Shown here in pieces: positions 1,792 through 49,952 of a DNA stretch of 64,000 nucleotides; position 1 is the stretch's first letter, and each line of letters begins with the position of its first letter. Location: the NCBI GenBank assembly GCA_937775205.1, contig CALKBX010000016.1:50992-114991 (forward strand). Direction: 5' to 3'. The notes under the pieces were generated by a model. That model made no database searches and was not told the DNA's origin. It saw only the letters and a program-made list of their open reading frames with translations. The DNA is from an uncultured Verrucomicrobiae bacterium (lineage in GTDB: Bacteria; Verrucomicrobiota; Verrucomicrobiia; Limisphaerales; UBA1100). The position numbers were made by a program, and so were the translations under genes.

Positions 1792-3051
1792 TTGAACCGG
1801 ACGGAAATCACTTATCGCTTCGAACGCCTGCGGGCTGTTGCTTCGGGGATTCTGGAAACGGCGTTCACGACTTTCCTGTTGTTAATCGCAGTGCAGTGGT
1901 TTGACTTCGGATCGACGGCGAAGGCAACCATTGCTGCAGCGGGGGCACTGGGATTTATGCTGGGGCCGGTGGTGGTTTCGCGCGTGGCGGACTTGGGCTG
2001 GACAACCGCGCAGGCAGCCTCACGGCTGGCGCTGGGCGCAGCGGGGTGCTTTGCCTTACTGGCGGTGGTGAGTGATCGTTGGCTTTTCATTGGCGGTATT
2101 ATTATGGCCACCACTTTGGGGACGGCAGCCATTCCGATGGTTACCCAGATTTATCAGGAGAATTATCCGGCAAAACGGCGGGGCAAATATTTTTCCAGGA
2201 CGGCCATGATTCGTATCATTAGCGCGGCTTCGTTTGGATTGTTGGTGGGCTGGATTCTAACCAATGACGACGACAGCCAAAAACTTTCCGGTTATCCGTG
2301 GGGGTTGATGCTGATTTTTGCATTGGCTTTTGCGTGGGCGTCCTTTTGCTTTTCGCGCCTCCCCGGCAAGACTCTCACGGGCGCGAAAGGCACGCACCCC
2401 TTCCGCTCGCTGCGGTTTGTGAAAGAGGATAAACTATTCCGTCACATCCTCATTTGCTGGATGCTCTTTGGAATCGGCAACCTCATGCTCTTTCCGTTGC
2501 GCGTGGAATATCTCGCCAACGCGAGCGAATACGCTGACGTCTACACACTGGGTTTTGATCCCACTCCCGCCCGCATCGCGCTGATTCTCGTTTTCATTCC
2601 GAATGCCGTGAAGCTGATCTTCAGTCCGCTGTGGGGCAGTCTCTTTGACAAAATGAATTTTTTTGTGCTGCGGGTAATCTTAAACTTTTTCTTTGCGGTG
2701 TCACTGGTGCTTTTTTTCCACAGCACTTCAATGGTCGGCCTATGCATTGCGGCGGGGCTCTTCGGCGTGGCCAATGCGGGCGGTGAGGTGGCTTGGAGCC
2801 TTTGGGTCACAAAGTTCGCGCCCGCCAAACACGTGGCTGATTACATGAGCGTGCATTTATTTTTTAATGGCATCCGCAATTTCATTTCGCCTTTCCTGGG
2901 TTTTTGGCTGATTGGATTGATGCCGGCCAGTAACCTCAGCCTCTTCAGTGCCGGGCTCATCGTAGCGTCCAGCTTGGCGTTGCTGTCGGATTATCCCTCC
3001 GGCGAAAAAGCGCGGCGCGGCGCGGCATTGACGGAAGAGATTTCCGACTAA
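1792..3051 (+). CDS. MFS-type transporter
   Basis: 419 aa with about 12 predicted hydrophobic helices and a central basic loop (YPAKRRGKYFSR). TTG start. Confidence 0.7.
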   Translation: MNRTEITYRFERLRAVASGILETAFTTFLLLIAVQWFDFGSTAKATIAAAGALGFMLGPVVVSRVADLGWTTAQAASRLALGAAGCFALLAVVSDRWLFIGGIIMATTLGTAAIPMVTQIYQENYPAKRRGKYFSRTAMIRIISAASFGLLVGWILTNDDDSQKLSGYPWGLMLIFALAFAWASFCFSRLPGKTLTGAKGTHPFRSLRFVKEDKLFRHILICWMLFGIGNLMLFPLRVEYLANASEYADVYTLGFDPTPARIALILVFIPNAVKLIFSPLWGSLFDKMNFFVLRVILNFFFAVSLVLFFHSTSMVGLCIAAGLFGVANAGGEVAWSLWVTKFAPAKHVADYMSVHLFFNGIRNFISPFLGFWLIGLMPASNLSLFSAGLIVASSLALLSDYPSGEKARRGAALTEEISD

Positions 3052-8144: not shown

Positions 8145-9487
8145 AGACGGGCGCTCATGGCCGCGCCGTTGTGGAAACAGGTGAGGTCAAATTTTTCGTT
8201 GGGCGAATGAAGGTTGTCATCCGGCAGCGCCAGCCCAAGCAGCAGCGAATCCGCGCCGAGCACTTTCTTGAATTCCGTGATGATCGGGATGGATCCCCCC
8301 TCGCGAAGGATCACCGGCTCATGCCCAAACGCTTCGCGTAACACGCCCAGCGCCGCCCGCGCCTGCGGGCCGGTGGGCGACACGAGATAAGGCTCCGCGC
8401 CGTGGCCTTCCTCGATTTCCAATCGCACGCCAGGCGGACAGAGTTTTTTCAATTGCTTCTTGAGTAGTAGCAAAATTTCACCCGGCTGCTGGTTGGGGAC
8501 AATTCGGCAGGTGATTTTCACCCGCGCCCATGCGGGCACGATCGTTTTGCTGCCCTCGCCTTGATAGCCGCTGGTGAGCCCGTTGATTTCCAGCGTGGGC
8601 CGCGCGCTGCGTTGCTCGATGGCGGTGAAGCCCGCTTCGCCAAACAGACCGTTCACGCCGAGCAGTTTTTTGTAAGCCGTCTCACTGTACGGCAAACGCT
8701 TGAATTGCTTCCGCTCGTGGGCGGAAAGTTTTTGCACCTTATCGTAAAATCCGGGCACGGCGATGCGTCCTTTTTTGTCGCGCAACGTCGCCAGCATTTG
8801 GCTGAGCGCCATCGCGGGATTTTGCACGCTGCCGCCGTAAATGCCCGAATGCAAATCCGCCTTCGGCCCGCGCACGGTGACCTCCATCGCCGCCACGCCA
8901 CGCAGGGCGTACGTGAGTGCGGGATGTTTTTTGGACGGCATGCCGGTATCCGACACCACCACGGTGTCGCATTCTAACTCGCGTTTTTTCTGGCGGAGAA
9001 ATTTCATCAAACTTTCACTGCCCACTTCTTCCTCGCCTTCGATCACAAAAGTGAGGTCGCACGGCAGCTCGGTGCCCGTTTTCAAAAATGCCTCCACCGC
9101 TTTGAGGTGCGCGAAATGCTGGCCTTTGTTATCCGTGGCCCCGCGCGCGTAAACAGCCCCGTTGCGAATGGTCGGCTCGAAGGGCGGCGAATTCCATTCG
9201 TGCAAGGGCTCCGGCGGTTGCACATCGTAATGGCCGTACACGAGAAAATGCGGACGCCGTCCCGGACGTTTCGGCGTGGTGGCGGTGACGATGGGATGAA
9301 AATCCGTGGCGTGTTTTTTTGCCTTCAGGCCAATGGCGCGACAATGATTCACCACCCAATCCGCCGTGGCCCGAACATCCTTGGCGTGCTTGCTTTGGGC
9401 GGAGACGCTCGGCAAGCGCAGGTATTCGCAAAGCTCATCAACAAAGCGGCCGCGATGGGTTTGGAGGTAATCAAGAACCGGTTGCAT
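8114..9487 (-). CDS. M20 family metallopeptidase (dipeptidase / deacylase-like)
   Basis: HYDVQPPEPLHEWNSPPFEPTIRNGAVYARGATDNKGQ and EGEEEVGS motifs. Start chosen at MQPVLDYL, which avoids overlap with the upstream gene. Confidence 0.8.
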   Translation of the reverse strand: MQPVLDYLQTHRGRFVDELCEYLRLPSVSAQSKHAKDVRATADWVVNHCRAIGLKAKKHATDFHPIVTATTPKRPGRRPHFLVYGHYDVQPPEPLHEWNSPPFEPTIRNGAVYARGATDNKGQHFAHLKAVEAFLKTGTELPCDLTFVIEGEEEVGSESLMKFLRQKKRELECDTVVVSDTGMPSKKHPALTYALRGVAAMEVTVRGPKADLHSGIYGGSVQNPAMALSQMLATLRDKKGRIAVPGFYDKVQKLSAHERKQFKRLPYSETAYKKLLGVNGLFGEAGFTAIEQRSARPTLEINGLTSGYQGEGSKTIVPAWARVKITCRIVPNQQPGEILLLLKKQLKKLCPPGVRLEIEEGHGAEPYLVSPTGPQARAALGVLREAFGHEPVILREGGSIPIITEFKKVLGADSLLLGLALPDDNLHSPNEKFDLTCFHNGAAMSARLWPALAAASS

Positions 9488-9519
9488 GCGCGCGGAGTGT
9501 ACCAAAAGGGGGCTGTCAA

Positions 9520-12500
9520 TCAATCCTCGTCCCCGCCGGGGATGAGCCACCGCAGAAAGCCCAATGGATTCACGACCATATCCTCTTCCTTATTGAGCAG
9601 CGGGATGGGCAGTTTACGAAATAATCCGCCTGGCAATCCCGTCAATTTCCTGCCCGCCATCAATGACAAACCAAATTCGTTTGGCTTAAAGCTCACATCG
9701 TCCAATGGGCCGCTAATTGAAAGGCAATGCGGGGTTTTTATAAATTTTTCCTTTGGGAAAACAATCGGGATCAGGCTGTATTTATTTGCTAAATCCTTGG
9801 CGAACTCGATGGTCAGTTTTTCGTTGATGAGCGATTTACCCCACTTTTCAGCAAGTTGAAAATCGCCCCGAATATTTGCCTGAACGAGTGGCCCCGCCAC
9901 AGTGAAATCGTGGTGGATGATTCCGTTTTTCACGGAAACCAGCAAGTGCCCATAATCCAAATGGCTGGTCCCCAATTCCTTGTCCCCTAATAATGATGCG
10001 ATATTCCCCAGGGCAGACGACAAACCATCCATCGGTAATGACAGGCCCGGGATAAAGTTAACGATGCTGTTCACAGTAGATGGGATGAGATTGGGTTTGG
10101 GCATTTTGCCATCGCGAAAAAATGCCCAATGCGCTTTGGTGGTCGTAAAAGAAGCTCGGCCGTCATCGATTCCGCGCAGCAAAAAACTTTTTTGAAATTC
10201 AGGCCCATTCAATGCATTGGCGGCCACTTGGAATCTAGCATCGAGCAGCCCGTAATTATGCGTGCGTTTTATTTTGAAGTAGTCGTTCAATTGATTCAGC
10301 GGAAGCTGTTCACAGGAAATATTCATCGCGTAGCGCGTGCGGTTGCCCTGCGGCACATACCAGCCTTCGGCCATGACGGGTGCGCCAAAAAGATGCATTT
10401 GCAACGGTTTCAAATGCACCTCGCGACCGTCGCGGACAATGGTGCCCAGCACATTCGTGGCGGTGAGGCCAAACCAGTGCATCTGTTTCACGTCAAAATC
10501 CCACTGGAAATTGTGAAACACCGAGCGCGACACCGCAGGCGCAATGGGTGCAGTCGGGGCAGCGGCGGGTTTGGCACGGCGAAATTGTACAAACATTTTT
10601 TCCAGCGCCGTGATGTCGAGCGACTTGGATGTAACTTTCAAATGACCCGCCGGATCTGCAGGCCGAGAGAAATCCAAAGTGCCCGCCAGATTGAAATTGG
10701 ATTGCCCGCTGAATGCATTGGTGGCCGTTAAACTCGCAGAGCATTCGTTCAGATGATAAATGTGATTGGTCACGCCGCCTTTCAGATTCAGGAACAAGGC
10801 GCGGGCGGGGGCGCGTTCGGGATCGCTCATCAACCGCACACGATCCGCCTGAAGAATAGTTTCCACGTGGCCGCCGCCGCTTTCATCAAGGCGTACGGAA
10901 CCTTTGAGCATTTTAAGGCGAATGGATCGAAAGTCCGGGCCACCGAGCAAATCAGACAGAGGAGCGAGGGCGAGCTGATCCAAGTTGCGGCAGTCCCATT
11001 CCAAATTGCCCTGCCTTCGGAAGGGATTGAAATCGCCTTTCACACTGAAGTCGCCGCTGTGTTTGTTGTTGATGAAAATGAAGCCGCGAGTGCCGTGGGA
11101 TACAATCCGCCATTCGTCCGTGCCGGGCACGGGTTGGCGGGCCAGGTCGAGCGTGGCGGTGGCGGTGAGAATTTTGTCGGGCCATTGTTTGCTCGGATCG
11201 TCCATCCGCACGCCGGCGAGTTCCACATCGCCTTTCAAATGAAAACCGCCTTGGCCGTCACTGGAAATTTCCAGCCGAGCGGGATGCTGCAGCACGCCCT
11301 GCGTGAATTTGCGCGGGGCGAGTTTTTTGCCGAGCAGCGGCTGCAGCAGTTGGTGATTGATGAATCCTTTTTCCTTTGCCGCCGGCGGTTGAAACACCAC
11401 GCGCCAGCGATTGGTGGTCGGCCAGTGTTGGCCGCTGAAACGTAAACGGGCGGCGGTTTTGTCGGGCAACATTAATTTCAGATTAGCATCGCGCACGGTG
11501 TTCACGGGCTGGCCGCCCTTGGGAATTGTCCTGGAAAAATCAAGGAACAGCTCGGCGTTGATGGGTGCCTTGGGCCAGTTAAAATCCCGCGCCTCGGCGC
11601 GCAGTCCGCTGGCGTGGATGAGGCCGCGCCAAGTGCCGCCGCCTTGGCCGTCGAGTTTCAGCTCGGTTTTGCCGGGCCATTTGAGCTTGCCGCCGGTCCA
11701 TTTAATGGGCCCGTCAACCCCGGCCAACCACGGCGCGAGCAGGCGGTGATCCAGCTCGGCGCCTTCCAGCGTGAAGACCGCCGCACCGGTTTGCGGATGC
11801 CAACCGCCGGTGATTTGCAGCTCGCCATCAAGCACATCGCCGCGCGGAAATTCCACACGTAATCCGGCCACCGAAACCGGCCAACGCGCCGCGCGTCCTT
11901 TGTCCACCGTGATTTTCCCGCTGGCGGTGAAGGTCACCGGCACAGGCCAATCGAGCTGGCGGGCGTCGGTGAAGGTTGCCTTGCCGTTCACTTGACTTTG
12001 TTGGCCGGGAAAATGTTTCACCGAAACCGTGGCGGCGAGCACGCCGTTGGTGAAATGTGTGAGGCCGGTCTGGGCGGCGAATGGGCCGAGCTTAAAATTT
12101 TTCAACACGACAGACGAAAGATCAATCGCGCCCGAACGCAAATCCCATTTGCCCTTGGCGGTGAGATACGGGGCAATTTCACGACCGCGCAAGGAGACGC
12201 GAGCGCCCAGGCCGGTGATGGCCAGGCGATGGCCTTTTTCAAGGCGCAGATCGACATTAGCGTGCGTGAAAAGATTGGTGATCCCAAGTTGCCCTATTTT
12301 GGTATTGAATTGGTCCAATCGCAGCTGGCCCTTTGCCGTTTGGAATTGCGGCGCGCGCAGGCCCGCCGTCATTGTGCCGTTGAAATCCAATGCGCCGCTC
12401 AGGGTCTCGGGGGCCCGGTCAAACCACGGGCGCATTTGGGCCAAGTCCGCCAACACCGCGGTGCGGCCGCTTACGGTGCGTTCCTGCAAATCACATTTCA

Positions 12501-14085
12501 TATCGCCGCCGGTGGCGGTGAGCACGGGGGCATTGGAGTGGCCAAGCCGCAATGAATATTTTGCGAGCGTCAACTGGCGAAAGTTTTGCAGCACCCCGTC
12601 CGCGCGCAAGCTGGCGGGCAGAGCGCGGGGAACCGCTTCCTCCAACCGCAAGTCAACGCCTTCGGCCGCGAACGCAAAGCCGATGCGACGGCCGGCTTCC
12701 TGAAAATGAATCCTGAATCCGGCGGATACATGGCCCGCCACGGCGCGTTCCCCCAGCCACGGACGCCAGTCGGCGAGGTTAATATCTTTCGCGGTGAGGG
12801 TAAAAAACGATTCACCCACGGGCGCGCCGCGTTGGCTCCAGTCAAACTGCATCGGCTGATCCAGCTCGCCGGCGAGCAGAGGCCGGCCTTGGTGGGTCGC
12901 GCTTACCTTCAGAGTATTAAGCCGCGCGGTGCGGGCGGGGGTGTCGATGGCGAAAGCATATTCAGCCGTGCCAATTTCCAGCGGCGGCGTGGTGGCTCCG
13001 CCGGAGCTGAGGTGAAAAGGCGCCGCCCGCATTGCGCCGCGCACTTCCAGCGTTTTGCCAAAAGCCGCCACGCGCACGCGGTTGGTGGAGTGCAGCACGG
13101 TGGAATGGAAATCAAGCCCCACCGGACGGCCAAGAAAATTCAGTACGCGCTGATCCACCCGGTGCAGCGCCACGGTGAGCTCCGCCCCGCCCGTGCCGGG
13201 CTGCAATGTGCCGCTCGCCTCCAGCTTGCCCAACGCGTCGCCCGCGTGCGTGAAGCGCAGGACGAAGCGCCGCAACTCATCCGCGGATGCCTCGGCGTCC
13301 AATTCCGCTTTCAGCCCCGAGGCAAAGGCAAACTGTCCCGCGCCCGTGCCCACTTGCAATTGCCCCTTGCCTTCCACCCGCGTGGGCAGTAGGCGGTCAT
13401 CGAGTTGGTGACTGAACCGCAGGCGAAAATCACCTTCCAATCCTTGGGCGGCTTCTTGCAGCAGTTTTAGCGAATAACCCGCGCGACCTTGCACGGTAAT
13501 TTCTCCGGACAGTCCGGCGGCAATTTCACTTGTGGAAAGGGTGAGGCCGGACAAATGCGCGGTCTCCGTGGTGCCGCTTTGATGATCGCGCCGATACTCC
13601 ACGCGCGCGTCTTTGATTAAAATTTTCCCAATGCGAATGAGTTCACCCTCGCTGTCCGACTTGGGGCGCTCGAGCAAGGGGGCGTAATTGGGATTGCCGT
13701 TGCGATCGATGTGAAGAAACAGCTCCGGTTTGTCGCACGCAATTTCCCCAAACTCCATGCGGCCCGCGAGCAAATCGCGCCATTGATAATTCACCTCCAC
13801 GCGAGCCGACTTTAATAGTGGCCGTTCGCCGGTGGCGTGGAGGGTGACGCCTTCGAGCCGTAGTTGGCTGCTGGGCGACCACTCGGCATTTTCAAAATCC
13901 ACCGTGGCATTGAGCGCGTGGTTCATCTTGGGCAGCAGCACCGCGCGCAAGAACCAATTGCTGGTCACCATCGCCCAGCCCAGCAGCAACACCACCGCCA
14001 GCGTGCCCGTGCCCCAAAGCAAACGCCGCCGCCAACGGCTCGGCTTGCGCGGGGAGGACACCTTTTTTTTGGGAAAACTCTCCAT
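9520..14085 (-). CDS. AsmA/TamB-like giant envelope protein
   Basis: About 1520 aa. An N-terminal signal anchor (RRRLLWGTGTLAVVLLLGW) is followed by a long repetitive beta-rich region. Start taken at MESFPKK; the ORF is open up to 14148. Confidence 0.6.
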   Translation of the reverse strand: MESFPKKKVSSPRKPSRWRRRLLWGTGTLAVVLLLGWAMVTSNWFLRAVLLPKMNHALNATVDFENAEWSPSSQLRLEGVTLHATGERPLLKSARVEVNYQWRDLLAGRMEFGEIACDKPELFLHIDRNGNPNYAPLLERPKSDSEGELIRIGKILIKDARVEYRRDHQSGTTETAHLSGLTLSTSEIAAGLSGEITVQGRAGYSLKLLQEAAQGLEGDFRLRFSHQLDDRLLPTRVEGKGQLQVGTGAGQFAFASGLKAELDAEASADELRRFVLRFTHAGDALGKLEASGTLQPGTGGAELTVALHRVDQRVLNFLGRPVGLDFHSTVLHSTNRVRVAAFGKTLEVRGAMRAAPFHLSSGGATTPPLEIGTAEYAFAIDTPARTARLNTLKVSATHQGRPLLAGELDQPMQFDWSQRGAPVGESFFTLTAKDINLADWRPWLGERAVAGHVSAGFRIHFQEAGRRIGFAFAAEGVDLRLEEAVPRALPASLRADGVLQNFRQLTLAKYSLRLGHSNAPVLTATGGDMKCDLQERTVSGRTAVLADLAQMRPWFDRAPETLSGALDFNGTMTAGLRAPQFQTAKGQLRLDQFNTKIGQLGITNLFTHANVDLRLEKGHRLAITGLGARVSLRGREIAPYLTAKGKWDLRSGAIDLSSVVLKNFKLGPFAAQTGLTHFTNGVLAATVSVKHFPGQQSQVNGKATFTDARQLDWPVPVTFTASGKITVDKGRAARWPVSVAGLRVEFPRGDVLDGELQITGGWHPQTGAAVFTLEGAELDHRLLAPWLAGVDGPIKWTGGKLKWPGKTELKLDGQGGGTWRGLIHASGLRAEARDFNWPKAPINAELFLDFSRTIPKGGQPVNTVRDANLKLMLPDKTAARLRFSGQHWPTTNRWRVVFQPPAAKEKGFINHQLLQPLLGKKLAPRKFTQGVLQHPARLEISSDGQGGFHLKGDVELAGVRMDDPSKQWPDKILTATATLDLARQPVPGTDEWRIVSHGTRGFIFINNKHSGDFSVKGDFNPFRRQGNLEWDCRNLDQLALAPLSDLLGGPDFRSIRLKMLKGSVRLDESGGGHVETILQADRVRLMSDPERAPARALFLNLKGGVTNHIYHLNECSASLTATNAFSGQSNFNLAGTLDFSRPADPAGHLKVTSKSLDITALEKMFVQFRRAKPAAAPTAPIAPAVSRSVFHNFQWDFDVKQMHWFGLTATNVLGTIVRDGREVHLKPLQMHLFGAPVMAEGWYVPQGNRTRYAMNISCEQLPLNQLNDYFKIKRTHNYGLLDARFQVAANALNGPEFQKSFLLRGIDDGRASFTTTKAHWAFFRDGKMPKPNLIPSTVNSIVNFIPGLSLPMDGLSSALGNIASLLGDKELGTSHLDYGHLLVSVKNGIIHHDFTVAGPLVQANIRGDFQLAEKWGKSLINEKLTIEFAKDLANKYSLIPIVFPKEKFIKTPHCLSISGPLDDVSFKPNEFGLSLMAGRKLTGLPGGLFRKLPIPLLNKEEDMVVNPLGFLRWLIPGGDED

Positions 14086-14205
14086 TGGGTTGCCGGTTAA
14101 AACCGAGGGACGAAAGTAACAGAGGGAGGAGGAAGTTCCAATGACCAATGACCTTCGGTTCTATTCTCGACTTTCAGTTGCCCTCCGTTCGGGGCACAGT
14201 GCGGC

Positions 14206-27238: not shown

Positions 27239-28405
27239 CTATTTATGCCGCAGCAAATAATGCTGCCTCAACAAATCCTTGCCATAATCGTTGCCATTCG
27301 GAGTGCGAACGACGGTGTGGATGTGTTGCCGCGTAGGCGTACGTGAACGCGCCAACGCAATCGGACGTTGGTGGTCAAACTCAATCAACGCCACGGGGCT
27401 TTGGATGCGGTAATAAAAAACGCTGTCCTTTTTCGTGCCGCCCATCCAGCCAAAGTACGTGGCATCGAGATGCTTTTTCATATCGGCCATTTTCACCTTG
27501 GCATGGCCATCGGCGAGATTCCCGATGTACACTTCAATGAGCCCATGCAACTGCGTTTTTTGTTTGGCGGTCAACTCACTGCAGCGAATGCCAATGTAAT
27601 CGAGTACCTGATTGTCGCGAAACGCTTCACCGATGTTGTTGGTCGGGCCTTTGTCGTTGGCGACGATCGCTTTGGCCCGTTGGGTTTTGTTCAGTGAATT
27701 AATGAACGCGAGACCCTTGTCCTGCTCGGCTTGGCAGATAACAGTACCCTTGAATTTGCCACTCTCGGCTTTCACCGGCTCAGAGCCCATAAAGACGGGA
27801 CTCATCACGACTTGATCGCCGAGAATAAAGTAGTTGATAACGACATGATGTCCATCTAGCTGCCAACCCCATGGCTTGGTGGCACTTGGCTCGCCCATGA
27901 TGGTGATCCAGTAAAGCCATTCGCCATATTCATCAAAGCGGTTGGTCAACTCGGCCAACGTGCCATTGAGCTTCATGATATCCTGCGTTTGCTTAAGTCC
28001 CCGGGCACTGAGGCTGGTGCGCAGTAGGTTGAAGGCGAGTTCGCGTTGGCCTTTGGTCATCTTGTCAAAGCCTGCACCTTGGCGCGCATAACGATGTCGG
28101 TTATCCCACTTGCGCCACTCAATATCATCCACGGGAAAGACAGTCTTCTTGCGGTCCTCAGCATTAAGACTGGAGAGGAATGCCTTCGCTGCCCACCGTA
28201 CAGGCTCAGTGTTCACGCCAGTTTTTTTGACCGGAAACAGGTTGGCCGGCGGAACATCAAGGAAGAACACACCCTTAAAAGGTTGAGCAAGGGCAGCTTC
28301 ACGTTGATTATCAAATCGACCGCGCGGTGGACCTTGCTGGGCGTCAACAGTCTCAACGAAAAAAATAGCTACCACAGCAATCGAGTACATTAATTTTGTT
28401 TTCAT
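27239..28405 (-). CDS. DUF3500 family protein
   Basis: [32 protein letters not shown] and a C-terminal [22 protein letters not shown]-terminal signal peptide. Confidence 0.7.
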
Positions 28406-28418
28406 AAAATCGTTTATG

Positions 28419-29753
28419 CTAAGGCCGGCGACCTCCACCCTGACGAGCCCCTCTCTCTTGATTAGAAATATTCAATTTACTGAACGGCGCGAGGTTGTCG
28501 GCCAATTTTGCCGCAGTTTCCGGGTGATTCAAGATCACGTCCTTGGATTCGGTAGGGTCATCTTTCACGTTATATAGGCTGACCTGTCCCTGACCCCAAG
28601 TCAGTTTCCATTGATCGTGGAGAACAGCAAAGTCGCCGGAGGGCCCGGCCACAATCACTGGTGGCCGTTTCATCGCCTTGTTTTGGACAATTGCCGGCCA
28701 ACAGTTTACGCCATCGAGCGGTTTTTGGTTGGCTGGCTCGATGCCCGCCGCAGCAGCGAATGTTGGGAAAAGATCCTGCGCAGAAATCAGCTGACTGCAG
28801 GTCGTCCCCGCGCGAATCACTCCCGGCCAGCGAAGGACTGCAGGCACACGGATGCCGCCCTCGAGCACGCTGCCCTTGCCACCGCGCAATGCCAATTGAC
28901 CCGGCAACGCGGTCGACCCACGTCGGCCTCCGCCAGATCCATTGTCGCAAAAAAACATCACAAGCGTCTCCTTAGAGATGCCCTCGGCTTCAATTGTGGC
29001 AAGCACTCGGCCGATCGCTGCATCCATTGCCTCGATTGCTCCCGCTTGCCCAACTCGCCGGCCAAAAAATCCAAGCTTACGATATTTCTCAAGCAATCGT
29101 TCGGAGGCCTGCGCTGGTTGATGTGGTGCGTTAAAAGGCAGATACAAAAAAACAGGCTTTATCTTGTTTCGGTTTTTCAAAAGTTTAATGGCCTCATCGG
29201 CCAGAAGATCAGTAGAATAGCCTTGAGGAGCCACCGACTGACCGTTGCGAAACCACCCACGCGCACGTGAACCATCGGTGGTGTAGTAATTAATTCCGCC
29301 ACCATGGAAACCAAAAAAATGGTCAAAGCCCCGAGCGTTGGGCGCGTAGTCATCACTACGCTCGCCAAGGTGCCACTTACCCACCATGAAAGTTTGATAA
29401 CCGGCTTTCTGAAAAGTTTGCGGCAGAAAATGTTCGCCCAGCGGAACGACCCCGCGGCCGATGGCTCCGGTAATGCCAAAGCGCGCGGGCGATCGGCCGG
29501 TCATCAACGCCGTACGCGTGGGGCTGCAAATAGGGTGCACATAAAAGCGGTCAAGCTGCACACCCTCCTTGGCAAGTCTATCGATGTGAGGGGTGGCGAT
29601 TTTGCTGCCGTGATAACCGACCTCGTTCCAACCCATGTCATCGGAGACAAACAGAATGATATGAGGCTTGGGAGAGGTCGCAGCCGATTGAGCCGAAACC
29701 ACAGTCGGGCATACAGCCAGAAATAAAAACAGAAAACAGGCTTTCCTTTTCAT
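28419..29753 (-). CDS. Arylsulfatase (formylglycine-dependent, type I)
   Basis: Signal peptide, then [19 protein letters not shown]...[14 protein letters not shown] (CxPxR motif). Confidence 0.88.
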
Positions 29754-29765
29754 GTGATGATAAGA

Positions 29766-30806
29766 CTAACGCTGAGGACGCCGACCGACTCCTCGACGAC
29801 TTAAACCATCGGTATTGGGAGTTGCACTTTGCCAACGGGCACCGGCTCGACTGCCCGCCTGGCGATGTTGGTCATAGGTCAGTTGACTGGGTTTATGTTT
29901 ACCCAGTGCCTCAGCCAGAGGTCCAGCAAGCTTCCCAGCTGAAGCAGCAGCATCAATGACCTCAATAACCTCACCGGTTAAACCAAAGGTTCCGGGCTGA
30001 ATCACCACAAACCCAGAGGTCGCTTTAAAATTCTTTACCGACTTAAATTCGGAAGCATCACTTGCCGGCACATACTGAGCCTCCCCGATAAATTGATCAG
30101 ACCATGCGACCTTTGAAAGTTCCTGTTCCATCTTCTTGCGCTGCTCGGCACTCTTCGAATAGACCACAATCAGGGGTTGACGATCTGCTGCGGTTACATT
30201 TAGCGCGAGGCGCAAATCTGCAAGATAAGGCAAGGGTGGAAATCCTTTTGCCGCTTTACCTTTACCCGGATAAACCAAAGCAATCGCTTCCATGGTCTGG
30301 CCCATTTTCTTCATGGACTCCTCGGGTTGAGCATTGATGCCAGGCCCATTGACTCCGCCGAACGCCCATACCGGACTACGACCTGCCGTGACCAGCTTGG
30401 TTTTTCCATCAGGGGTTAGGAGGGTGAAAACGGTATTCTCTAGATTACCTCCACGCGCATAAAAACCTTTCAACACCTCATTCTCTTCGGCGTTTTCGTA
30501 AGTTGCCAAACGAATGCAGACAAACTTACGAGAAGCGGAGATAACGTCTTTGTCGGCCAGGAAACTCCTGTCCATTCCGGTTTTACCCGGTCACCAGACT
30601 CCAGGGACTGAGTGGCACTGGGGAACAGCCGAAACCAGCATGATTGGCTTGGCAGTACGTTTCGCCTCAGCCAAACCACCTTTCCATGTGCCATGCCAAG
30701 CGATTTTTTCAGCTTTAGCTGTAGCCTTTGGAGCCTCAGTTTGTGCATTGGAAAAGAAGGGCACCGCCAAAAAAGCACCGGCTAGTAATATGCTGCGATT
30801 CATCAT
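29766..30806 (-). CDS. Secreted thioredoxin-fold protein interrupted by one in-frame TGA (30591-30593) at the position of the first CxxC cysteine. Candidate selenoprotein or nonsense pseudogene.
   Basis: The 71-aa ORF (signal peptide ...KPIMLVSAVPQCHSVPGVW) and the 269-aa ORF (MDRSFLADKDVISASRKFVCIRL...) are in the same frame, separated only by TGA plus 5 sense codons (PGKTG). Confidence 0.6.
30555..30573 (-). other. Small hairpin 17 nt downstream of the in-frame UGA (possible bacterial SECIS-like element)
   Basis: RNA GGACAGGA-GUU-UCCUGGCC: 7 bp with one A/G mismatch and GU in the apical loop about 26 nt after the UGA. A 4-bp CCGG/CCGG hairpin also follows the UGA directly. Confidence 0.25.
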
Positions 30807-30965
30807 CTTATATTTTCCCAGACGTTACCTTAAGAGGTTGGTTACAATCAATTGCATTTCTCATTCGAGATTTTTCATGTGAAACCTTTTCCCGTGGGGT
30901 ACGTCATTACAATTGACGCGAACGGCCTTGAACGGCATCGTGAGTCAACAGCAACCCTATATTTT

Positions 30966-32012
30966 ATGATGAAAAAACAAATACTAATCCCCGCCTTTCT
31001 CGGCGGGCTAATGACATTCAGTCTGACTACACAAGCCCAAGATCGCCCAGGACAAGGTGGCCGTGGTGGCGAAGGTGGCCGTGGTGAAGGTATCCGGGAA
31101 GCCATGATCAAGAAATATGATAAGAATGGTGACGGCAAGCTTGATGAAGATGAGCGCCCTTCCCGCGAAGAAATGCAGGAGTTTTTCCGTGCCCAACTTG
31201 GCGGTGGTCAAACCAGACCCAGCGGTGGTCAAACCAGACCCAGCGGTGGTCAAACCAGACCCAGCGGTGGTCAAACCAGACCCAGCGGTGGTCAAACTAG
31301 GCCCGGCGGCGGTCAAACCAGGCCTGGTCAGGGTGGTCGTGATGCAGCACCGCAGCAGAATATGCGCGATGCCATGCTCAAAAAGTTTGATAAAAATGGT
31401 GACGGCAAACTCGATGAAGATGAGCGCCCTTCCCGTGAAGAAATGCAGGAATTTTTCCGCTCGCAACTTGGAGGCGGACAAGGCGGCAGGCCTGGCGGTG
31501 GTCAAGGTGGCCCAGGTCAAGGACGGCCAGGTGCTGGTGAACCCGGACAAGGACGGCCGGGTCAGGGCGGCGGCTTTGGCGAAAGAGGTCAAGGTGGACG
31601 CGGCGGCTTCAGGCCACCTAATCCCGTAATGGAAGCCATTGACAAAAACAAGGACGGCACTCTAAGTGCGGAGGAATTAAAAAACGCCGCTAAGGCACTC
31701 TCTGCTTTAGATAAGAACAAAGACGGCAAGATCGACCAGGAAGAAATGCGTCCGCAATTCAATCGCGGCCAAGGTGGTCGTGAAGGCTTCAGCCGACCGG
31801 GACAAGGCGGCCAAGGTGGCGAAGGTCGCCCCGGACAGGGCGGACGTGAAAACCCACGCGGATCTGGTACTGGCGGACGTGAAAACCCACGCGGACCTGG
31901 TGCTGGCGGACGTGAAAACCCACGCGGACCTGGTGCTGGCGGACGTGAAAACCCACGCGGACCCCGCGAGGGCGATCGGAATCAACCTCGTCCTGAACGC
32001 AGTGATGCCTAA
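30966..32012 (+). CDS. Secreted EF-hand calcium-binding protein with low-complexity Gly/Arg/Pro repeats
   Basis: Signal peptide MMKKQILIPAFLGGLMTFSLTTQA. Four DKNGDGKLD / DKNKDG(T/K) EF-hand loops sit between repeat tracts. Confidence 0.8.
   Translation: MMKKQILIPAFLGGLMTFSLTTQAQDRPGQGGRGGEGGRGEGIREAMIKKYDKNGDGKLDEDERPSREEMQEFFRAQLGGGQTRPSGGQTRPSGGQTRPSGGQTRPSGGQTRPGGGQTRPGQGGRDAAPQQNMRDAMLKKFDKNGDGKLDEDERPSREEMQEFFRSQLGGGQGGRPGGGQGGPGQGRPGAGEPGQGRPGQGGGFGERGQGGRGGFRPPNPVMEAIDKNKDGTLSAEELKNAAKALSALDKNKDGKIDQEEMRPQFNRGQGGREGFSRPGQGGQGGEGRPGQGGRENPRGSGTGGRENPRGPGAGGRENPRGPGAGGRENPRGPREGDRNQPRPERSDA
31203..31328 (+). repeat. 6 x 21-nt in-frame tandem repeat (GGQTRPS); the first four copies are identical
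   Basis: ggtggtcaaaccagacccagc repeated head to tail. Confidence 0.95.
31839..31961 (+). repeat. About 3.7 x 33-nt in-frame tandem repeat (GGRENPRGPGA)
   Basis: ggcggacgtgaaaacccacgcggacctggtgct repeated head to tail. Confidence 0.95.
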
Positions 32013-43567: not shown

Positions 43568-43634
43568 TTGGTAGGGACACGCCTTTTTTGCGTGAATGGC
43601 CCGTCCGGTGCGGTTAGGGTTTCCACACATTCCT

Positions 43635-44678
43635 ATGAGTGAAACTACCCGCCTACTCAAACCGGAAGAACTGACTCCGGCCACCGAACTCACCCGGCAA
43701 GTGCTGGAACAACTCGATCGCAGCCTGCTCGGGCGCGCGGAGCTGCATCGGCTCGTGCTCATCGGCCTGCTCAGTCGCGGCCACATTTTATTGGAAGGCC
43801 TTCCCGGCTTGGGCAAAACCGCGCTGGTGCAAACCATCGGCAACGTGATGAAGCTGCAATTCAGCCGCGTGCAGTTTACGCCGGACCTCATGCCGGGCGA
43901 TGTGCTGGGCACGCATATTTTGCAGGAGACGGACACGGGCAAACGCGAAATGATTTTTGAACCGGGCCCGGTGTTCACTAATATTTTGTTGGCGGACGAA
44001 ATCAACCGCGCCTCGCCCAAAACCCAAAGCGCGATGCTCGAGACGATGCAGGAACACTCCGTCACTTTGCGCGGCCAAACGCGGCCGTTGCCCGATCCGT
44101 TCTTCGTGCTCGCCAGCCAAAACCCCATCGAGATGGAGGGCACGTATCCGCTGCCCGAGGCGCAACTGGACCGCTTTCTTTTTCGCGTGATGTTCGATGC
44201 GGTGGATGCGTCGGTGCTGCAAAACATCATCACCGGTCGGCGCCGCGGCAATGTGCCCGCGCCGGAATGGCAGCTCGACGCCGATGACCTCAACTATCTT
44301 TTCAGTGTAATGGAACATATTTTCCTGCCCAAACCGGTGGCGAGTTATATCGCGCGATTGGTTTCGGCCACGCATCCGGACAACGCCGAGGCACCGGAGC
44401 CGGTTGCGCGCTACGTTCAATACGGCGCTTCCCCACGCGCCGCCATCGCCATGGCCGAGGCGGCGCGGGCCCACGCGCTGGTGGATGGCCGCCCCACCGT
44501 CGGCTTTGAAGATGTGCGCGCCATCGCGCGGCCGGTTTTGAACCATCGGTTGATTTTGAATTATCAAGCGCGCTTCGACCGCGTGGATGCCCACGGCGTG
44601 CTCGATCAATTACTCGAAGCCCTCGACGACACCGGCCTGCATTTGCCCGAGGATGTTTCCCTGCAACCCACCAGATGA
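43635..44678 (+). CDS. moxR: MoxR-family AAA+ ATPase
   Basis: LLEGLPGLGKT (Walker A), LLADEINRASPKTQSAMLE (Walker B region), PEAQLDRF. Confidence 0.9.
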   Translation: MSETTRLLKPEELTPATELTRQVLEQLDRSLLGRAELHRLVLIGLLSRGHILLEGLPGLGKTALVQTIGNVMKLQFSRVQFTPDLMPGDVLGTHILQETDTGKREMIFEPGPVFTNILLADEINRASPKTQSAMLETMQEHSVTLRGQTRPLPDPFFVLASQNPIEMEGTYPLPEAQLDRFLFRVMFDAVDASVLQNIITGRRRGNVPAPEWQLDADDLNYLFSVMEHIFLPKPVASYIARLVSATHPDNAEAPEPVARYVQYGASPRAAIAMAEAARAHALVDGRPTVGFEDVRAIARPVLNHRLILNYQARFDRVDAHGVLDQLLEALDDTGLHLPEDVSLQPTR

Positions 44679-46604
44679 TCCGTCTTTGGCAAATCGTGTG
44701 TGTCGTGCCATTGCTAGCCTTTAGCCTATTGGGCGGTGAGCTGACGTTCAAAAATGTGCACATCCGCACGCGCACCCTCGCCGATGCGCAACATTCCCAT
44801 GGATACACGGCGCACCAGTTTGAGCTGGAAAACCTTTCCGGAAAAAAACACACGGTTACGATCCAATTCCCGTCAGAAGATCACCACGACGGATCCAACA
44901 TCACAGATCTGCGCCGCACCGTGGCACTCGGCCCAAATAGCCGTAAAGTGGTTTCGCTATATCAACCACCCCTTTCCATCGACTCTTATGCCCGCAGCGC
45001 ATTCATCACCGTGGATGGCGAAACACGCCGGCTAGCTGATGCCTTTGGCGGCCATGTGAACAGCCTCGCCAATCTGGGCATCCACCAGCCGGCGGTGGTG
45101 CTGGCCAGCCGTTCGTGGAACGGCAAGTTTGCCTCGAACCCAACATACGAGGTGAACATCGCCGAAGGACTCATCACCCAGTGGGCGCGCCATTGGCTAG
45201 CATATAGCGGGTTTGACGTGGTGGTGGTGCGCGCGAACGAATGGAACGCGGCTCCGACTGAGGTTCGGATGGCCATTGTGCAATACGTGCGCGCGGGTGG
45301 ACGACTGTTCGTACTGGGATCCATCACTTTACCGCCGGACGCCCGAAAGCTGAACACCACCCAACTGGCCGCCCGGCAGCAGTCGGCAAGCGCTCTGTTA
45401 GAAAAAGTGAACATCATTAGCGTCTCCAAATCCTCCGGAAGGGAAGACTATCCGGAAGAAAACATGGGGCATGAAGAACATGAGGGACATAAGCAGCCTG
45501 GAAACCGGCCAGACACAGAATCCCTCCGCAGTCGCGAGCTCCGTGTATACTCTGGGGTGGGGGCTGATCCGAGTACTGGACCCTACGGTCACCGAAATGA
45601 GAAACCATCGGAGCATGCTAGAGGCAATTGAAAATCTCCGCTCCAACGAACAAGTCCGGATGCCAGCTTTGTCATCCGTAATGGCCGGCGCTCGGAATTT
45701 GCATACCGAAGATAAATATTCTTATTATCAGGAATCTTCGGGCAGCTTCGACGATTACTTTCCCATCGTGGAAGACTCCGGTGTGCCGGTGCGATTAATG
45801 ATTGTGATTTTAATTGGGTTTGTAGTTTTGGCGGGGCCGGTGAATTTGGTATTGCTGCACAAGCTTAAGCGGCGGACGTGGTTTTTGTGGACTCTCCCGG
45901 CAATATCAATACTCACCAGTGCAGTGGTGTTTGCCACAGCGCTGCTCAACGAGGGCTTCACGCCCACAGTGCGGCGTGATGTCATCACAATTCTTGATCA
46001 CCAATCCCAACAGGCAACCACCGTCGGCGCGCTGGGCATTTACGCGCCGGTAGCTCCGGGGAATCTGGAATTCTCCGCACACACAGAGGTGACCCCGTTG
46101 CTCAGTTCCCGCGGTCAGGATTCCGGTAGTAATCGCGGAATAAACTGGACGAAAGGGCAACTCTTTACTGGGAAATGGATAGCCTCGCGCGTACCAGCAC
46201 ATTTTGCGGTACGAAAAAGTGAGTCGCGCAAGGAACGCCTCAGTGTCACGTGGAAAAGTGGCACGCCCACGGTGGTGAACAGCCTCGGCACGGACATCAC
46301 CTACTTGTGCTTGGCGGATGCACAGGGAAACATTTTTGAAGCCACCCACCTTCGCGCCGGGCAACGCGCCGAACTCCAACGTGTCGCGGGCAAACAAACG
46401 GTCATCAATTATTTGAACACCAACTTTTTGTTGTCTACCGACAAGGATACCCCGGAAAGTGAGTACCCGAAAAACCTCTCGGCGGGCACCTACCTCGCGC
46501 GGCTGGATGACTCCCCCTTTATGGAAAACCCCATCGGCCGCGGGCAGCTCAAGACACACGCGGTGGTGCTGGGCGTACTCACAAAATCGGAGGCCGGCCC
46601 GTGA
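44675..46604 (+). pseudogene. Signal-peptide/TM protein of unknown function, probably one ~640-aa gene split by a frameshift near 45465
   Basis: ORFs 44675-45631 and 45471-46604 overlap by 160 nt in different frames. The frame-2 tail is low-complexity, whereas frame 0 reads YTLGWGLIRVLDP... ATGA/GTGA coupling at both ends. Confidence 0.5.
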
Positions 46605-47530
46605 AAATTCGTGTGCAAAATCTGCGGCGTGAGTTTGGCAAAACAATCGCGGTAAACTCCGTTTCCTTTGAGTTTGAGTCCGGCCAAATCTACGCCTTCG
46701 TCGGCCCCAACGGCGCGGGCAAAACCACCACCATGCGCATTATGGCCACGCTCGATGAGCCCAACGCCGGTGATGTGTTTATGGACGATCTCTCGGTGGT
46801 GGAGTATCCGGAAAAGGCGCGCCAGATCATCGGTTTTGTGCCCGATGAATTGAAGCCGTATTGGGACACCACCGTGCACGAGTACCTTGATTTTTTCGCG
46901 CGCGCCTACGGACTGCGCGGCACTCAACGCACCGAAGCCGTGGCCAGCGTGGAGGAATTCACCAACGTAGCGGGCATTCGCGAGAAGACGTTGCGCTCGT
47001 TGTCCAAAGGAATGAAACAGCGCGTCAGCCTCGGGCGCGCGTTGGTGGCCGATCCGCAGGTGCTCATTCTCGACGAGCCCGCCGCCGGATTGGATCCCCG
47101 CGCGCGGGTGGAACTGCGCGAACTCCTCACCCTCCTCGCCAAGCAAGGCAAAGCCATTCTCATCAGCTCGCACATTCTCACGGAGCTGACGGAAATTTGC
47201 GACGGCGTCGTCATCATCGAACAGGGCAACCTGTTGGAGAGCGGCAACATCGATGACGTCATGGCCAAGCGCACGCCGCGCCGCACTTACGCCCTGCGCG
47301 TGCTGGGCGAGCCACGGGATTTACTGCGCGAGCTGCTGCAAACCGCCCACGTGGAAAACCCGCGCATGGCCGGCACTGAATTGCATTTCGAAGTGGAAGG
47401 CGGCGAGGACGAAGCCTTTGGCGTGCTCAACGCCCTCATCGTCGCCGGCCATCGCGTGGTGGAATTCCGCCAAACCAAAGCCAACCTCGAGGACATTTTT
47501 ATGAACGTCACCACCGGAGGCGTCCAATGA
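46601..47530 (+). CDS. ABC transporter ATP-binding protein (ABC-2 subfamily type)
   Basis: GPNGAGKTT (Walker A), LSKGMKQR (signature), LILDEP (Walker B). The GTG start overlaps the upstream TGA. Confidence 0.9.
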   Translation: MKIRVQNLRREFGKTIAVNSVSFEFESGQIYAFVGPNGAGKTTTMRIMATLDEPNAGDVFMDDLSVVEYPEKARQIIGFVPDELKPYWDTTVHEYLDFFARAYGLRGTQRTEAVASVEEFTNVAGIREKTLRSLSKGMKQRVSLGRALVADPQVLILDEPAAGLDPRARVELRELLTLLAKQGKAILISSHILTELTEICDGVVIIEQGNLLESGNIDDVMAKRTPRRTYALRVLGEPRDLLRELLQTAHVENPRMAGTELHFEVEGGEDEAFGVLNALIVAGHRVVEFRQTKANLEDIFMNVTTGGVQ

Positions 47531-49117
47531 GCGAGGCGGTGAAATCCACGCGCTTCGCTTGGCTGCGCAGCATCGAGCCCAACGCCGTGTTGGTGAAAGA
47601 CCTCCGCCAAGCCGCGCGCAACTGGTCGGTCACCGGCGCGGTGCTGTTGATGATGGCCATTTTCTTCGTCGTTTCGCTGGGCTTCCTGCTTACTGACGAA
47701 ATGGCCGGACGCGGCAATTACCTTGGCGCGCAACTCTTCGGTTCCATCGCAGGTGTGATGATGGCGGTCACCTTTATTTTCCTGCCCATTTACGTAGGCA
47801 TCCGCTCCATCGCCGAGCGCGCTAGCGCTAGCGCGGATTTGCTGTACATCACCACCATGAGCCCTGCGCGCATCATCGCCGGCAAATTCCTCAGCGGCGC
47901 AGCCTTGGTGGGGATCTTCTTCACGGCGGCGCTGCCCTTCATGGTGTTCAGCTATTTACTACGCGGCATTGATCTACCAACCATCTTGCTGACAGTGAGG
48001 CTACCTGTATGTATTGAACTGCCTGCTTCTACTGGCGGCAATGATGCTGGCTTCAATGGGGATTCATTTCATTTTCAAAATCCTCATCGCATTGTTCGTT
48101 GGGTTGCCGTTGATATTTTACACCATGGCTGCGGTTCTCGGCACGGCAATGATTGCCGGATTTGGCGGAGCTCTTTCGGGTGGCCGATTCTTGGCGGAGG
48201 CCCTGCCCATCATCCTTACCATACTGCTGAATATCGGCCTCGCGGCCGGGTTGCTATTTTTCCTGTGTGTTTCCTTTATCACCCCGCGCACTGCCAATCG
48301 CGAGTTTCCGCTGCGCGTGTATTGCGCGGTGATGTGGGCGGTAATCGGGCTGGAGGCCGGCGTGTGGACTTTGGTGAAAGATGATTGGGAAATATTTGGC
48401 TACGTATTTGGAGCCTTCTGCGGACTGCTGGGGGCACTGGGGATTTTTTACGCCATCGGGCAGGAGGATCACCTCAGCGTGCGAGTGCGTCGTGATATCC
48501 CGCGTAATCCCCTTCGCCGTGCGGTGGCATTTTTATTTTTCAACGGCGCACTCGGTGGGTTAATCCTGAGTTGTCTGTTCAGTTTTGGAGGATTACTGCT
48601 CATATTCGCTAGCTTGGAGGCGTGGCCCATGCTCACGGGAAGTTCCTCGAGCACACATGATTGGAGTGAATTTTGTTCCGGCTTCATAATACTGGGATTG
48701 TACCTCATCGCCCATGCGCTAATGTCGCTGTGGATCCACCGCACATGGCTACCAACCCGCAGCCCGATGTGGTCGCGCCTGTTTTTTTTGGTGAGTATCG
48801 TGATTCCGTATTGCGCCACTTATGTGATTTACTATCTGTTCACCCAGGATTTTCTCGAGGACGGAACGATCCCCGGTATCATGCTCAATTCTTTCTATGC
48901 CATCGCCGATGGGGATGAGGAGAGTGTATACGCCCACCTAATTGCCGCGCTGGTGTTGGCGGTGGGGGCTCTGGTGTTGAATGCAAAATGGATTTTCGAG
49001 CGCCTCAAGGATTTCAAACCCTACGAACGCCCGACGACTCCCGTGCCTCCCACGCCACCCGTAACCCAAACTGCACCAGCAGCCAATGAAAACCCCATTC
49101 CGCCAAAGCTTGGTTGA
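47527..49117 (+). pseudogene. ABC-2-type polytopic permease with a frameshift near 47997
   Basis: ..RGIDLPTILLTV (frame 1) continues as GYLYVLNCLLLLAAMMLASMGIHF.. (frame 2). One extra base is present at gtg-a-ggc. Confidence 0.6.
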
Positions 49118-49952
49118 TGGCGAACAGGCAGGGATGCGTTACGCGCTGTGCCTGCCCAACTCGCCGATGAGCGGCGTGCGCGGCGAACGCCTCGGCCGCC
49201 GCGCGGGCAGCTCGGTGGATTTCCAGGATTACCGCGAGTACCAACCGGGCGATGACCTCCGCCACATTGACTGGAACGCTTACGCCCGCAGCAATCAACT
49301 CATCGTCAAACTGCATCGCGAGGAAGTGCAGCCGCATCTCGATCTCATTCTCGATACCTCCGCCTCGATGAATTTGCCCGATACCGACAAGCCCGCCGCG
49401 CTGCATCAACTCGCCGCGCTGCTCGCCACCGCCGCCGCCAACGCGCGTTGCTCGCAGGCGCTGTGGATGACCGGCGAAGGCTTCCAACGTGTCCGCAACG
49501 ACACCCAACCGCCTGGCGCGTGGGGCGAGCTGCCGATGGGCGGCGCGCGGTCATTTGAGGAAGCCCACGGATTGCTGCCCCCGCGCCTGCGCCGTCAAGG
49601 AATGCGGGTGATCATCAGCGACCTGCTGTGGCCCGGCGATCCGCTACCCACGCTGCGCAAACTCGCCGAGGGCGCGGCCAGTTTGCACGTCATCCAATTG
49701 CTCGCGCGCACCGATGCCACCGCGCCCGAGCCGGGCAACGTGCAGTTGCAGGACACCGAGACCGGCGAGATGCTCTCCATTTATGTCGACGCGAGCATCA
49801 GGGAAACCTACCGCGACACCCTCCGCCGCCTGCAACAAAGCTGGCACAACGCCTGCAAACAAACCGGCGCGCAACTCACCACCCTCATCGCCGAAGACCT
49901 CGGTCAGTCGCTGTCCGCGCTGGAGGAAATCCAACTGCTGGAGCCCGCCTGA
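49086..49952 (+). CDS. DUF58 family protein (vWA-like fold, MoxR partner)
   Basis: GSSVDFQDYREYQPGDDLRHIDWNAYARSNQLIVKLHREE. An alternative start at 49134 lies after the permease stop. Confidence 0.85.
   Translation: MKTPFRQSLVDGEQAGMRYALCLPNSPMSGVRGERLGRRAGSSVDFQDYREYQPGDDLRHIDWNAYARSNQLIVKLHREEVQPHLDLILDTSASMNLPDTDKPAALHQLAALLATAAANARCSQALWMTGEGFQRVRNDTQPPGAWGELPMGGARSFEEAHGLLPPRLRRQGMRVIISDLLWPGDPLPTLRKLAEGAASLHVIQLLARTDATAPEPGNVQLQDTETGEMLSIYVDASIRETYRDTLRRLQQSWHNACKQTGAQLTTLIAEDLGQSLSALEEIQLLEPA

Follow-up and report, generated by a model that had tools for sequence, protein, structure and literature searches.

Does a UGA codon that divides one reading frame in an uncultured verrucomicrobial genome end translation, or does it encode selenocysteine (Sec)? 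The question is raised by a locus on the minus strand of a 64,000-nucleotide (nt) stretch of contig CALKBX010000016.1 (positions 50,992 to 114,991; assembly GCA_937775205.1, an uncultured Verrucomicrobiae bacterium); this whole stretch is here termed the window, and its own numbering is used throughout unless another locus is named. An earlier note on this DNA had pointed to two open reading frames (ORFs) in the same frame with a single TGA between them and had proposed Sec as a candidate reading of that codon. The same coordinates were recovered here. The minus-strand frame 29766-30806 comprises 346 codons and a TAG stop at 29766; its sole internal stop is the TGA at 30591-30593 (codon 72), at which gene callers split the frame into an ORF of 71 amino acids that ends with the TGA (30591..30806) and an ORF of 269 amino acids (29766..30575). 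The junction, ...KPIMLVSAVPQCHSVPGVW-TGA-PGKTGMDRSFLADKDVISASRKFVCIRL..., reads exactly as it had been given.

We consider it very likely that 29766-30806 (minus strand) encodes one exported selenoprotein of 346 residues, with Sec at UGA72 inserted by means of a hairpin downstream of the codon. The proposal of a Sec residue is now supported by TGA in orthologues, by Cys in homologues, by a hairpin of the selenocysteine insertion sequence (SECIS) type, and by sel genes near relatives of the gene. Decoding would be canonical Sec insertion, i.e., an ordinary recoding mechanism, and what is apparently new is the protein family and the design of its active site.

Conservation of the UGA codon

A first database search, with the read-through protein as the query, returned 119 homologues of ∼214 to 276 amino acids, and all 119 covered only the C-terminal ∼75% of the query because each had been called from just past the TGA. 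The pattern recurred in a HMMER search of 1.84 billion cluster representatives (E values up to 0.001): nearly all of the 707 relatives start at query residue 78, and among the top 150 representatives, ∼146 were called from after the TGA and ∼4 (about 3%) are Cys forms. For comparison at the DNA level, 85 related loci (numbered L below) were retrieved, and a scan of a species-representative genome set located relatives in 223 stretches, the best 80 of which were kept.

The orthologue check suggested by the earlier note gave a uniform answer. The stop codon at this column is TGA in 86/86 stop-bearing homologous copies, which represent 79 distinct sequences, and TAA or TAG in none; locus L017, which is truncated at a contig edge, stands outside this count. 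The copies come from at least five phyla, comprising Verrucomicrobiota, Planctomycetota, Melainabacteria/Obscuribacterales, Vulcanimicrobiota/Xenobia, and Omnitrophota, and the family has a wide distribution among marine Verrucomicrobiota and Planctomycetota. The nearest relatives of the window gene are found in the Verrucomicrobia single-cell genome AH-558-L06 (97% amino acid identity) and in metagenome-assembled genomes (MAGs) of Limisphaerales and Verrucomicrobiales, with 94 to 97% identity for those of the Limisphaerales.

Full-length homologues that span the column are P0181, P0191, P0243, and P0253, and all four have Cys exactly there (e.g., GVSGMW-C-PGK), encoded by TGC in L086 and by TGT in L087. 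All four also keep the upstream Cys at the C-x7 spacing. UGA thus aligns with Cys in homologues, the pattern by which selenoprotein families are classically recognized.

Conservation is not confined to the part that databases retain. In frame and 5′ of the TGA, family members share a signal peptide followed by the stretch KIAWxGTWxxGLxEAxRTGKPILLxSAAPxCxxxPGxW. In the 40 codons that precede the TGA, 8181 differences fall in third codon positions, against 1855 and 1293 in positions 1 and 2, respectively; downstream of it, the corresponding numbers are 6923 against 2177 (position 1) and 868 (position 2). The third-position excess on both sides therefore indicates purifying selection on one coding frame throughout.

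Some genomes carry a second copy of the gene. In a paralogous subfamily (L036, L040, L041, and L042), the motif is W-U-K-G-K and the upstream Cys lies one residue away from its usual place (ACLHQVPGIW-U). This subfamily accompanies the W-U-P-G-K form as a second copy in MAGs (L034/L040, L035/L042, and L033/L041) and retains both TGA and hairpin. A MAG of the Verrucomicrobiota (L012) has two tandem copies on one contig, at 669 and 1791, and TGA and hairpin are present in both.

A SECIS-like hairpin downstream of the UGA

The earlier note had described a hairpin with GU in its loop at a distance from the TGA typical of bacterial SECIS (bSECIS) elements, and such a hairpin lies within the coding sequence at 30555..30573 (minus strand), over the codons for M-D-R-S-F-L-A ((M)-D-R-S-F-L-S/A in the family). 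Its 5′ arm occupies 30573-30566, its GUU loop 30565-30563, and its 3′ arm 30562-30555. The hairpin starts 18 nt past the UGA, and the spacing from UGA to loop is 25 nt. In the window the stem has 5+2 bp, with one A/G mismatch, and a free energy of −8.3 kcal/mol; the family hairpin has an 8-bp stem (5 to 8 bp across members) and the same 25-nt spacing. The published bSECIS model (PMC13188914, Fig. 2A) has a loop of 3 to 9 nt, a stem of 4 to 16 bp, a G in the first two loop positions, a distance of 16 to 37 nt from the UGA, and a minimum free energy of −7.5 kcal/mol or lower, and the window hairpin falls within all of these limits. Across the family, 76 of 79 hairpins, folded alone, reach −7.5 kcal/mol or lower. 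The loop is GUU in 65 sequences and AGUUA in 9, with close variants of these in the rest, and in every case G-U or G-G stands in its first positions.

Two kinds of comparative evidence indicate that this structure is maintained by selection. First, covariation was analyzed in a gap-free alignment of 79 sequences, with a slid 3′ arm and 500 shuffles as controls. The hairpin positions are paired in 93% of cells, compared to 32 to 59% in the slid controls, and compensatory change is seen at 6 of the 8 pairs, which are altered on both sides in 17 cells. None of the 500 shuffles matched the observed values, and RNAalifold independently predicted the identical stem. Second, the codons that build the hairpin are held constant at the synonymous level. 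The Ser codon in the loop is AGT in 77/77 sequences, while a control Ser codon 11 codons downstream is TCN in 74, AGC in 2, and AGT in none; the Arg codon in the stem is AGG or AGA in 57/58, while a control Arg codon is CGN in 63 and AGR in 12. Synonymous codons are thus fixed within the hairpin and free beyond it, and the hairpin is therefore under strong synonymous-codon constraint. The signal resides in the comparative analysis only: a shuffle z-score for the 81 nt of the window sequence alone is uninformative (z = 0.93).

In the Cys forms, the hairpin-encoded peptide DRSFL is unconserved, and one of them (L086) retains only a decayed hairpin of −3.4 kcal/mol.

The element resembles the SECIS of the Escherichia coli fdhF type and the bSECIS consensus in being a hairpin within the coding sequence just past the UGA, with a small loop that begins with G-U and an 8-bp stem. 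It differs in being unlike the curated SECIS families in sequence and, in most members, in its minimal 3-nt GUU loop. Another hairpin, CCGG-GUAAAA-CCGG (30577-30590, minus strand), was considered as the SECIS and rejected, as it is confined to the clade of the window and, at 4 nt from the UGA, is too near to it for the bSECIS model.

Sec genes beside family members

Components of the Sec-insertion machinery are located next to family members in three independent lineages. First, in two MAGs of the Verrucomicrobiales (L010 and L011; 87% identity of the family protein to that of the window), a gene for a full-length SelB immediately precedes the family gene in the same orientation (tblastn E values of 1e-64 and 1e-66), and this SelB has the Pfam domains GTP_EFTU, SelB beta-barrel, and SelB winged-helix. 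The gene order is Transglut_core - selB - selenoprotein - sulfatase - DUF3500, and the first three of these genes stand head to tail on one strand (L011, 60-3810, with L010 alike). A Transglut_core gene has been noted inside a planctomycete Sec-insertion operon (PMC4807772), and the Sec-insertion locus of these Verrucomicrobiales may include the family gene or be cotranscribed with it. Second, a MAG of the Planctomycetota (L069) has a tRNA-Sec with the anticodon TCA at 1098-1197, 1.8 kb upstream of the family gene; a gene for 3-dehydroquinate synthase stands between the two. Third, in L087 a selD homologue (E value, 1e-51) is found just past the gene for the Cys form P0253. This selD (5296-6375) itself has an in-frame UGA at 5341, at the catalytic position (...DYAACAG-UGA-AAKMPLG), with a 7-bp hairpin that has a GGUCU loop at a spacing of 32 nt from the UGA; its database call begins past the UGA and hence is truncated.

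The presence of selB, tRNA-Sec, and selD next to family members therefore indicates that genomes bearing the family use Sec. By a rough estimate, ∼0.5 such adjacencies would be expected by chance among the ∼85 loci, compared to the three lineages observed, and the excess is suggestive and no more. No selA was seen at any locus examined.

Predicted architecture and function

The protein is predicted to be exported. Residues ∼1 to 22 (MMNRSILLAGAFLAVPFFSNAQ; 30741..30806, minus strand) read as a signal peptide with an approximate cleavage site, and a hydrophobic N terminus is also present in homologues; in the structure model described below, this segment is of low confidence and unstructured. 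An AlphaFold2 model, built on 81 sequences with Sec represented as X, consists of two thioredoxin-like α/β modules (mean predicted local distance difference test [pLDDT] score, 88; predicted template modeling score, 0.84). Domain 1 (residues ∼34 to 180; 30267..30707, minus strand) has the topology β-α-β-α-β and is a catalytic domain of the Thioredoxin_7/AGR type, with the motif C64-x7-U72-P-G-K and an invariant Cys97. Domain 2 (residues ∼190 to 305; 29787..30239, minus strand) is thioredoxin-like, resembles the PDI b domain, and is without a redox motif; its secondary-structure elements cover residues 198 to 302, and a conserved C-terminal tail (H314, G318, G322, W325, and P330) follows it.

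Structural comparison with the Protein Data Bank (PDB) by Foldseek supports this assignment. The whole chain matched PDI abb′xa′, the Trx1-Trx2 fragment of QSOX1, ERp44, ERp57, and calsequestrin with E values of ∼1e-4 to 1e-3, and domain 1 alone matched AGR2/AGR3 with a probability of 0.99 to 1.0 and target template modeling scores of 0.50 to 0.56. The likeness to Thioredoxin_7 that had been proposed by eye is weak by sequence, the Pfam model (PF13899) matching residues 36 to 106 with 16.6 bits (E value, 0.0085), which is below the gathering score of 27 bits; the fold itself is confirmed by the predicted structure.

In a gap-free comparison by eye, together with the range of the Pfam match, Sec72 (30591..30593, minus strand) falls on the first, nucleophilic Cys of WCxxC, at the N terminus of helix α1 of the thioredoxin fold, and Lys75 falls on the second. 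The UxxK motif had been flagged as unusual, and it is so: Lys occupies the place of the resolving Cys, and there is a conserved Cys upstream. This is Cys64 (30615..30617, minus strand), the Cys that the earlier note had placed 8 residues before the TGA; it forms a C-x7-U arrangement with Sec72, is conserved in all Sec forms and the four Cys forms, and is a candidate resolving residue. Cys97 is invariant in 81 sequences. Both Cys64 and Cys97 are candidate redox partners of Sec72, and the motif suggests that Cys64 and Sec72 probably form a selenenylsulfide.

We infer Sec insertion in this organism, export, and the C64-U72 couple from these features, and on that basis the following sequence of events can be proposed. 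With the ribosome at UGA72, SelB with GTP and Sec-tRNA(Sec) would be recruited by the hairpin that lies 25 nt further on; Sec would be inserted instead of termination, and the ribosome would read on as far as the TAG stop (29766). After maturation, the protein would consist of two thioredoxin-fold domains, the first with Sec at the position of the CxxC nucleophile, and would cycle through the Cys64-Sec72 selenenylsulfide. The protein would accordingly be a putative periplasmic selenol/thiol oxidoreductase.

Alternative readings of the UGA codon

Several observations weigh against Sec insertion at this codon. No tRNA-Sec, selA, selB, or selD was found in the 64-kb window, where ARAGORN returned a tRNA-Asp only and tblastn with E. 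coli SelA, SelB, and SelD gave no match. The A/G mismatch in the stem occurs throughout the clade of the window, and three close relatives reach only −5.9 kcal/mol (24-nt hairpin alone). The covariance-model check that had been recommended for a bacterial SECIS was negative with the Rfam SECIS models, both over the whole window at the gathering threshold and over 30400-30700 at E values of up to 10; this is not counted against the hairpin, because the Rfam SECIS models cover few lineages. Of the two Cys forms examined for the hairpin, just one has lost it; the other, at L087 (3760-4956, codon TGT), keeps a strong hairpin (−12.9 kcal/mol, loop CGCGA) at the site equivalent to the SECIS, which could be a fossil SECIS from a recent Sec-to-Cys change or a chance structure in a GC-rich gene. 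Finally, the active-site loop is the weakest part of the structure model, with pLDDT scores of ∼50 to 80 over residues ∼61 to 80, where the alignment is shallow and residue 72 is X.

If UGA72 is read through, another amino acid might be inserted, by lineage-wide reassignment to Trp or by near-cognate read-through (Trp, Cys, or Arg) stimulated by the hairpin. Termination at UGA is weak when the next base is C. A hairpin downstream could in general stimulate read-through, and reassignment of UGA to Trp is known in some Verrucomicrobiota (PMC13462651). We nevertheless regard decoding as an amino acid other than Sec as very improbable. TGA is the stop of 14 of the 29 long ORFs in the window, as the earlier note had observed of neighboring genes, and its use as a usual stop therefore argues against genome-wide reassignment; under genetic codes 4 and 25, TGA is unused as a stop, which is not the case in the window. 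Near-cognate read-through or Trp decoding also fits poorly with Cys, not Trp, at the column in homologues that lack Sec, with an apical G-U of the SelB type at canonical spacing, and with selB, tRNA-Sec, and selD beside family members.

The locus could instead hold two genes, one for a secreted peptide of 71 residues and one for an independent cytoplasmic protein of 269 residues that starts at an ATG 15 nt downstream of the TGA. This is how public annotation presents the family (119/119 homologues of the first search and ∼146 of the top 150 representatives), and most members do have an ATG after the TGA. That ATG, the downstream start of the gene callers, is missing in 12/80 sequences, which rules out the downstream part as a gene of its own. 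Further, TAA and TAG never replace TGA in the 79 distinct sequences, although the share of TGA among the stops of the window is just ∼50%; a split here would cut a single thioredoxin fold between strand β1 and helix α1; and the full-length Cys forms unite both halves in one protein. Two separate genes are even less probable than non-Sec decoding.

Least credible of all is a nonsense pseudogene, i.e., a thioredoxin-like gene inactivated in this genome by mutation of TGC or TGT to TGA: a single substitution would suffice at a Cys position, but the conservation of TGA in 86/86 copies across several phyla therefore excludes it, and purifying selection on either side of the TGA and a contrasting case of true decay (L067, with two additional TAG stops where the window gene has none) argue the same way. 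That decaying copy (L067, 2770-3800) reads W-U-PGFQTMTRSFW, its two further in-frame TAG stops are at nonconserved positions, and its hairpin is register shifted; this is probably a second copy that has become a pseudogene, since the same MAG has an intact copy as well (L026).

Relation to catalogued selenoprotein families

The selenoprotein encoded at 29766-30806 apparently belongs to a family that is so far undescribed and lies outside current selenoprotein catalogues. Release 20 of NCBIfam (June 2026) has models for most catalogued selenoprotein families, and neither NCBIfam nor Pfam has a model that the window protein matched at threshold. Its best NCBIfam match was NF041383 (VPGUxxT type 2), with 15.6 bits against a cutoff of 275; its score was also below the cutoff of 350 bits for NF041382 (VPGUxxT type 1) and was 11.5 bits against a cutoff of 300 for NF041199 (Trx7/PDZ). 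The four Cys forms scored 10.9 to 15.2 bits against any selenoprotein-family model, for which cutoffs are 275 to 805. Membership in the VPGUxxT, Trx7/PDZ, and TsoB families was considered and rejected, as scores are far under the cutoffs. A review of May 2026 (PMC13188914, Table 1) lists 119 families and subfamilies, among which there is none with a W-U-P-G-K or C-x7-U thioredoxin-type motif and this architecture.

VPGUxxT (NF041382 and NF041383; “hypothetical protein OS_HP5” in Table 1 of PMC13188914) is likewise a bacterial thioredoxin-like selenoprotein, of unknown function. Both families have a V/S-P-G tripeptide just before Sec and no CxxC-type partner Cys after it. They differ in that the motif is VPG-U-x-x-T in VPGUxxT and VPG-x-W-U-P-G-K in the window family, in which Sec is two residues later and Lys rather than Thr occupies position +3. 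The weak match is confined to the N-terminal ∼100 residues, with 10.9 to 14.1 bits for the Cys forms, and VPGUxxT is at most a distant relative within the same fold.

The Trx7/PDZ family (NF041199, from the Global Ocean Sampling metagenome) also has a Sec-bearing catalytic domain of the Thioredoxin_7 type and occurs in marine metagenomes, and it gave the most consistent weak match across the Sec and Cys forms alike (11.5 to 15.2 bits). In contrast to the window family, which has Sec in the first position, Lys in the second, and a second thioredoxin-like domain, it has Sec in the second position (CxxU) and a PDZ domain, and Pfam found no PDZ domain in the window protein.

Among proteins based on Cys, AGR2/AGR3 (CxxS) and ERp44 (CRFS) are similar in retaining only the N-terminal nucleophile of CxxC and in being exported to an oxidizing compartment, the latter being a prediction in the case of the window family. 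These proteins are eukaryotic and have 10 to 15% sequence identity to the window protein, which differs from them in having Sec, Lys instead of Ser at position +3, and an extra conserved Cys in the loop between β1 and α1.

Implications

In essentially all public annotation seen, the family is cut at the UGA, which affects hundreds of genomes of the Planctomycetes-Verrucomicrobia-Chlamydiae group and others. The cut therefore removes the signal peptide and active site from the databases and leaves the label of a cytoplasmic hypothetical protein. Recognition of the family would add one to the ∼119 known prokaryotic selenoprotein families and would broaden the record of Sec use among marine Verrucomicrobiota, Planctomycetota, Melainabacteria, and candidate phyla. 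Its SECIS is minimal (8 bp, GUU loop), clean, and strongly constrained and could serve as a training case for predictors of SECIS elements and selenoproteins. The active site, C-x7-U-x-x-K in a PDI-like scaffold of two domains, with replacement by Cys being rare, offers a model for the preference of Sec over Cys.

A role of the family in selenium handling, e.g., periplasmic capture or reduction of selenium species that feed SelD, is hinted at by the adjacency of sel genes in three lineages, near-exclusive use of Sec, and a recurrent EF-hand neighbor that is apparently fused in one homologue. We hold such a role to be doubtful, and the adjacency does not require it, as clustering of sel genes with selenoprotein genes is frequent and has regulatory or historical causes.

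Genomic neighborhood

Directly downstream of the selenoprotein gene lies a sulfatase gene (28419..29753, minus strand; Pfam Sulfatase, E value of 3e-62), followed by a DUF3500 gene (27239..28438, minus strand; E value, 2.5e-102), and the order selenoprotein - sulfatase - DUF3500 is common to the window and L011. On the other side, a gene for an EF-hand repeat protein is transcribed divergently (30852..32012, plus strand; matches to EF-hand families with E values of 1e-15 to 1e-17). These neighbors recur across the family: a sulfatase is found in the flanks of 28 loci, DUF3500 in 16, a divergent EF-hand protein in 21 (the window included), and PSCyt/PSD1 proteins in 28. PSCyt/PSD1 proteins are abundant in Planctomycetes generally.

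The EF-hand neighbor is possibly linked to the family by gene fusion, since the Cys form P0181 has an EF-hand-like N-terminal extension, for which NCBIfam gave weak matches only (lanmodulin and XopAW). This extension and the adjacency together hint that the family has a functional connection with the binding of calcium or metals. The EF-hand protein of the window (30852-32012) contains tandem GGQTRPS repeats.

A scan of the window for further pairs of ORFs in the same frame split by a TGA returned noise only, mostly off-frame or antisense ORFs. At one end of the window, an ORF at 59-1234 (plus strand) ends with a TGA at 1232, shortly past a peptide that presumably resembles the mid-region of the large subunit of carbamoyl-phosphate synthase; a further ORF lies at 1792-3051 (plus strand). 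The sequence after this TGA does not look like a continuation, and the region may represent a naturally split or truncated carB. Elsewhere, several series of long ORFs with overlaps of a few to ∼160 nt occur at 6414-14148 (minus strand) and 43596-49952 (plus strand), and some of these overlaps are ordinary ATGA-type overlaps within an operon.

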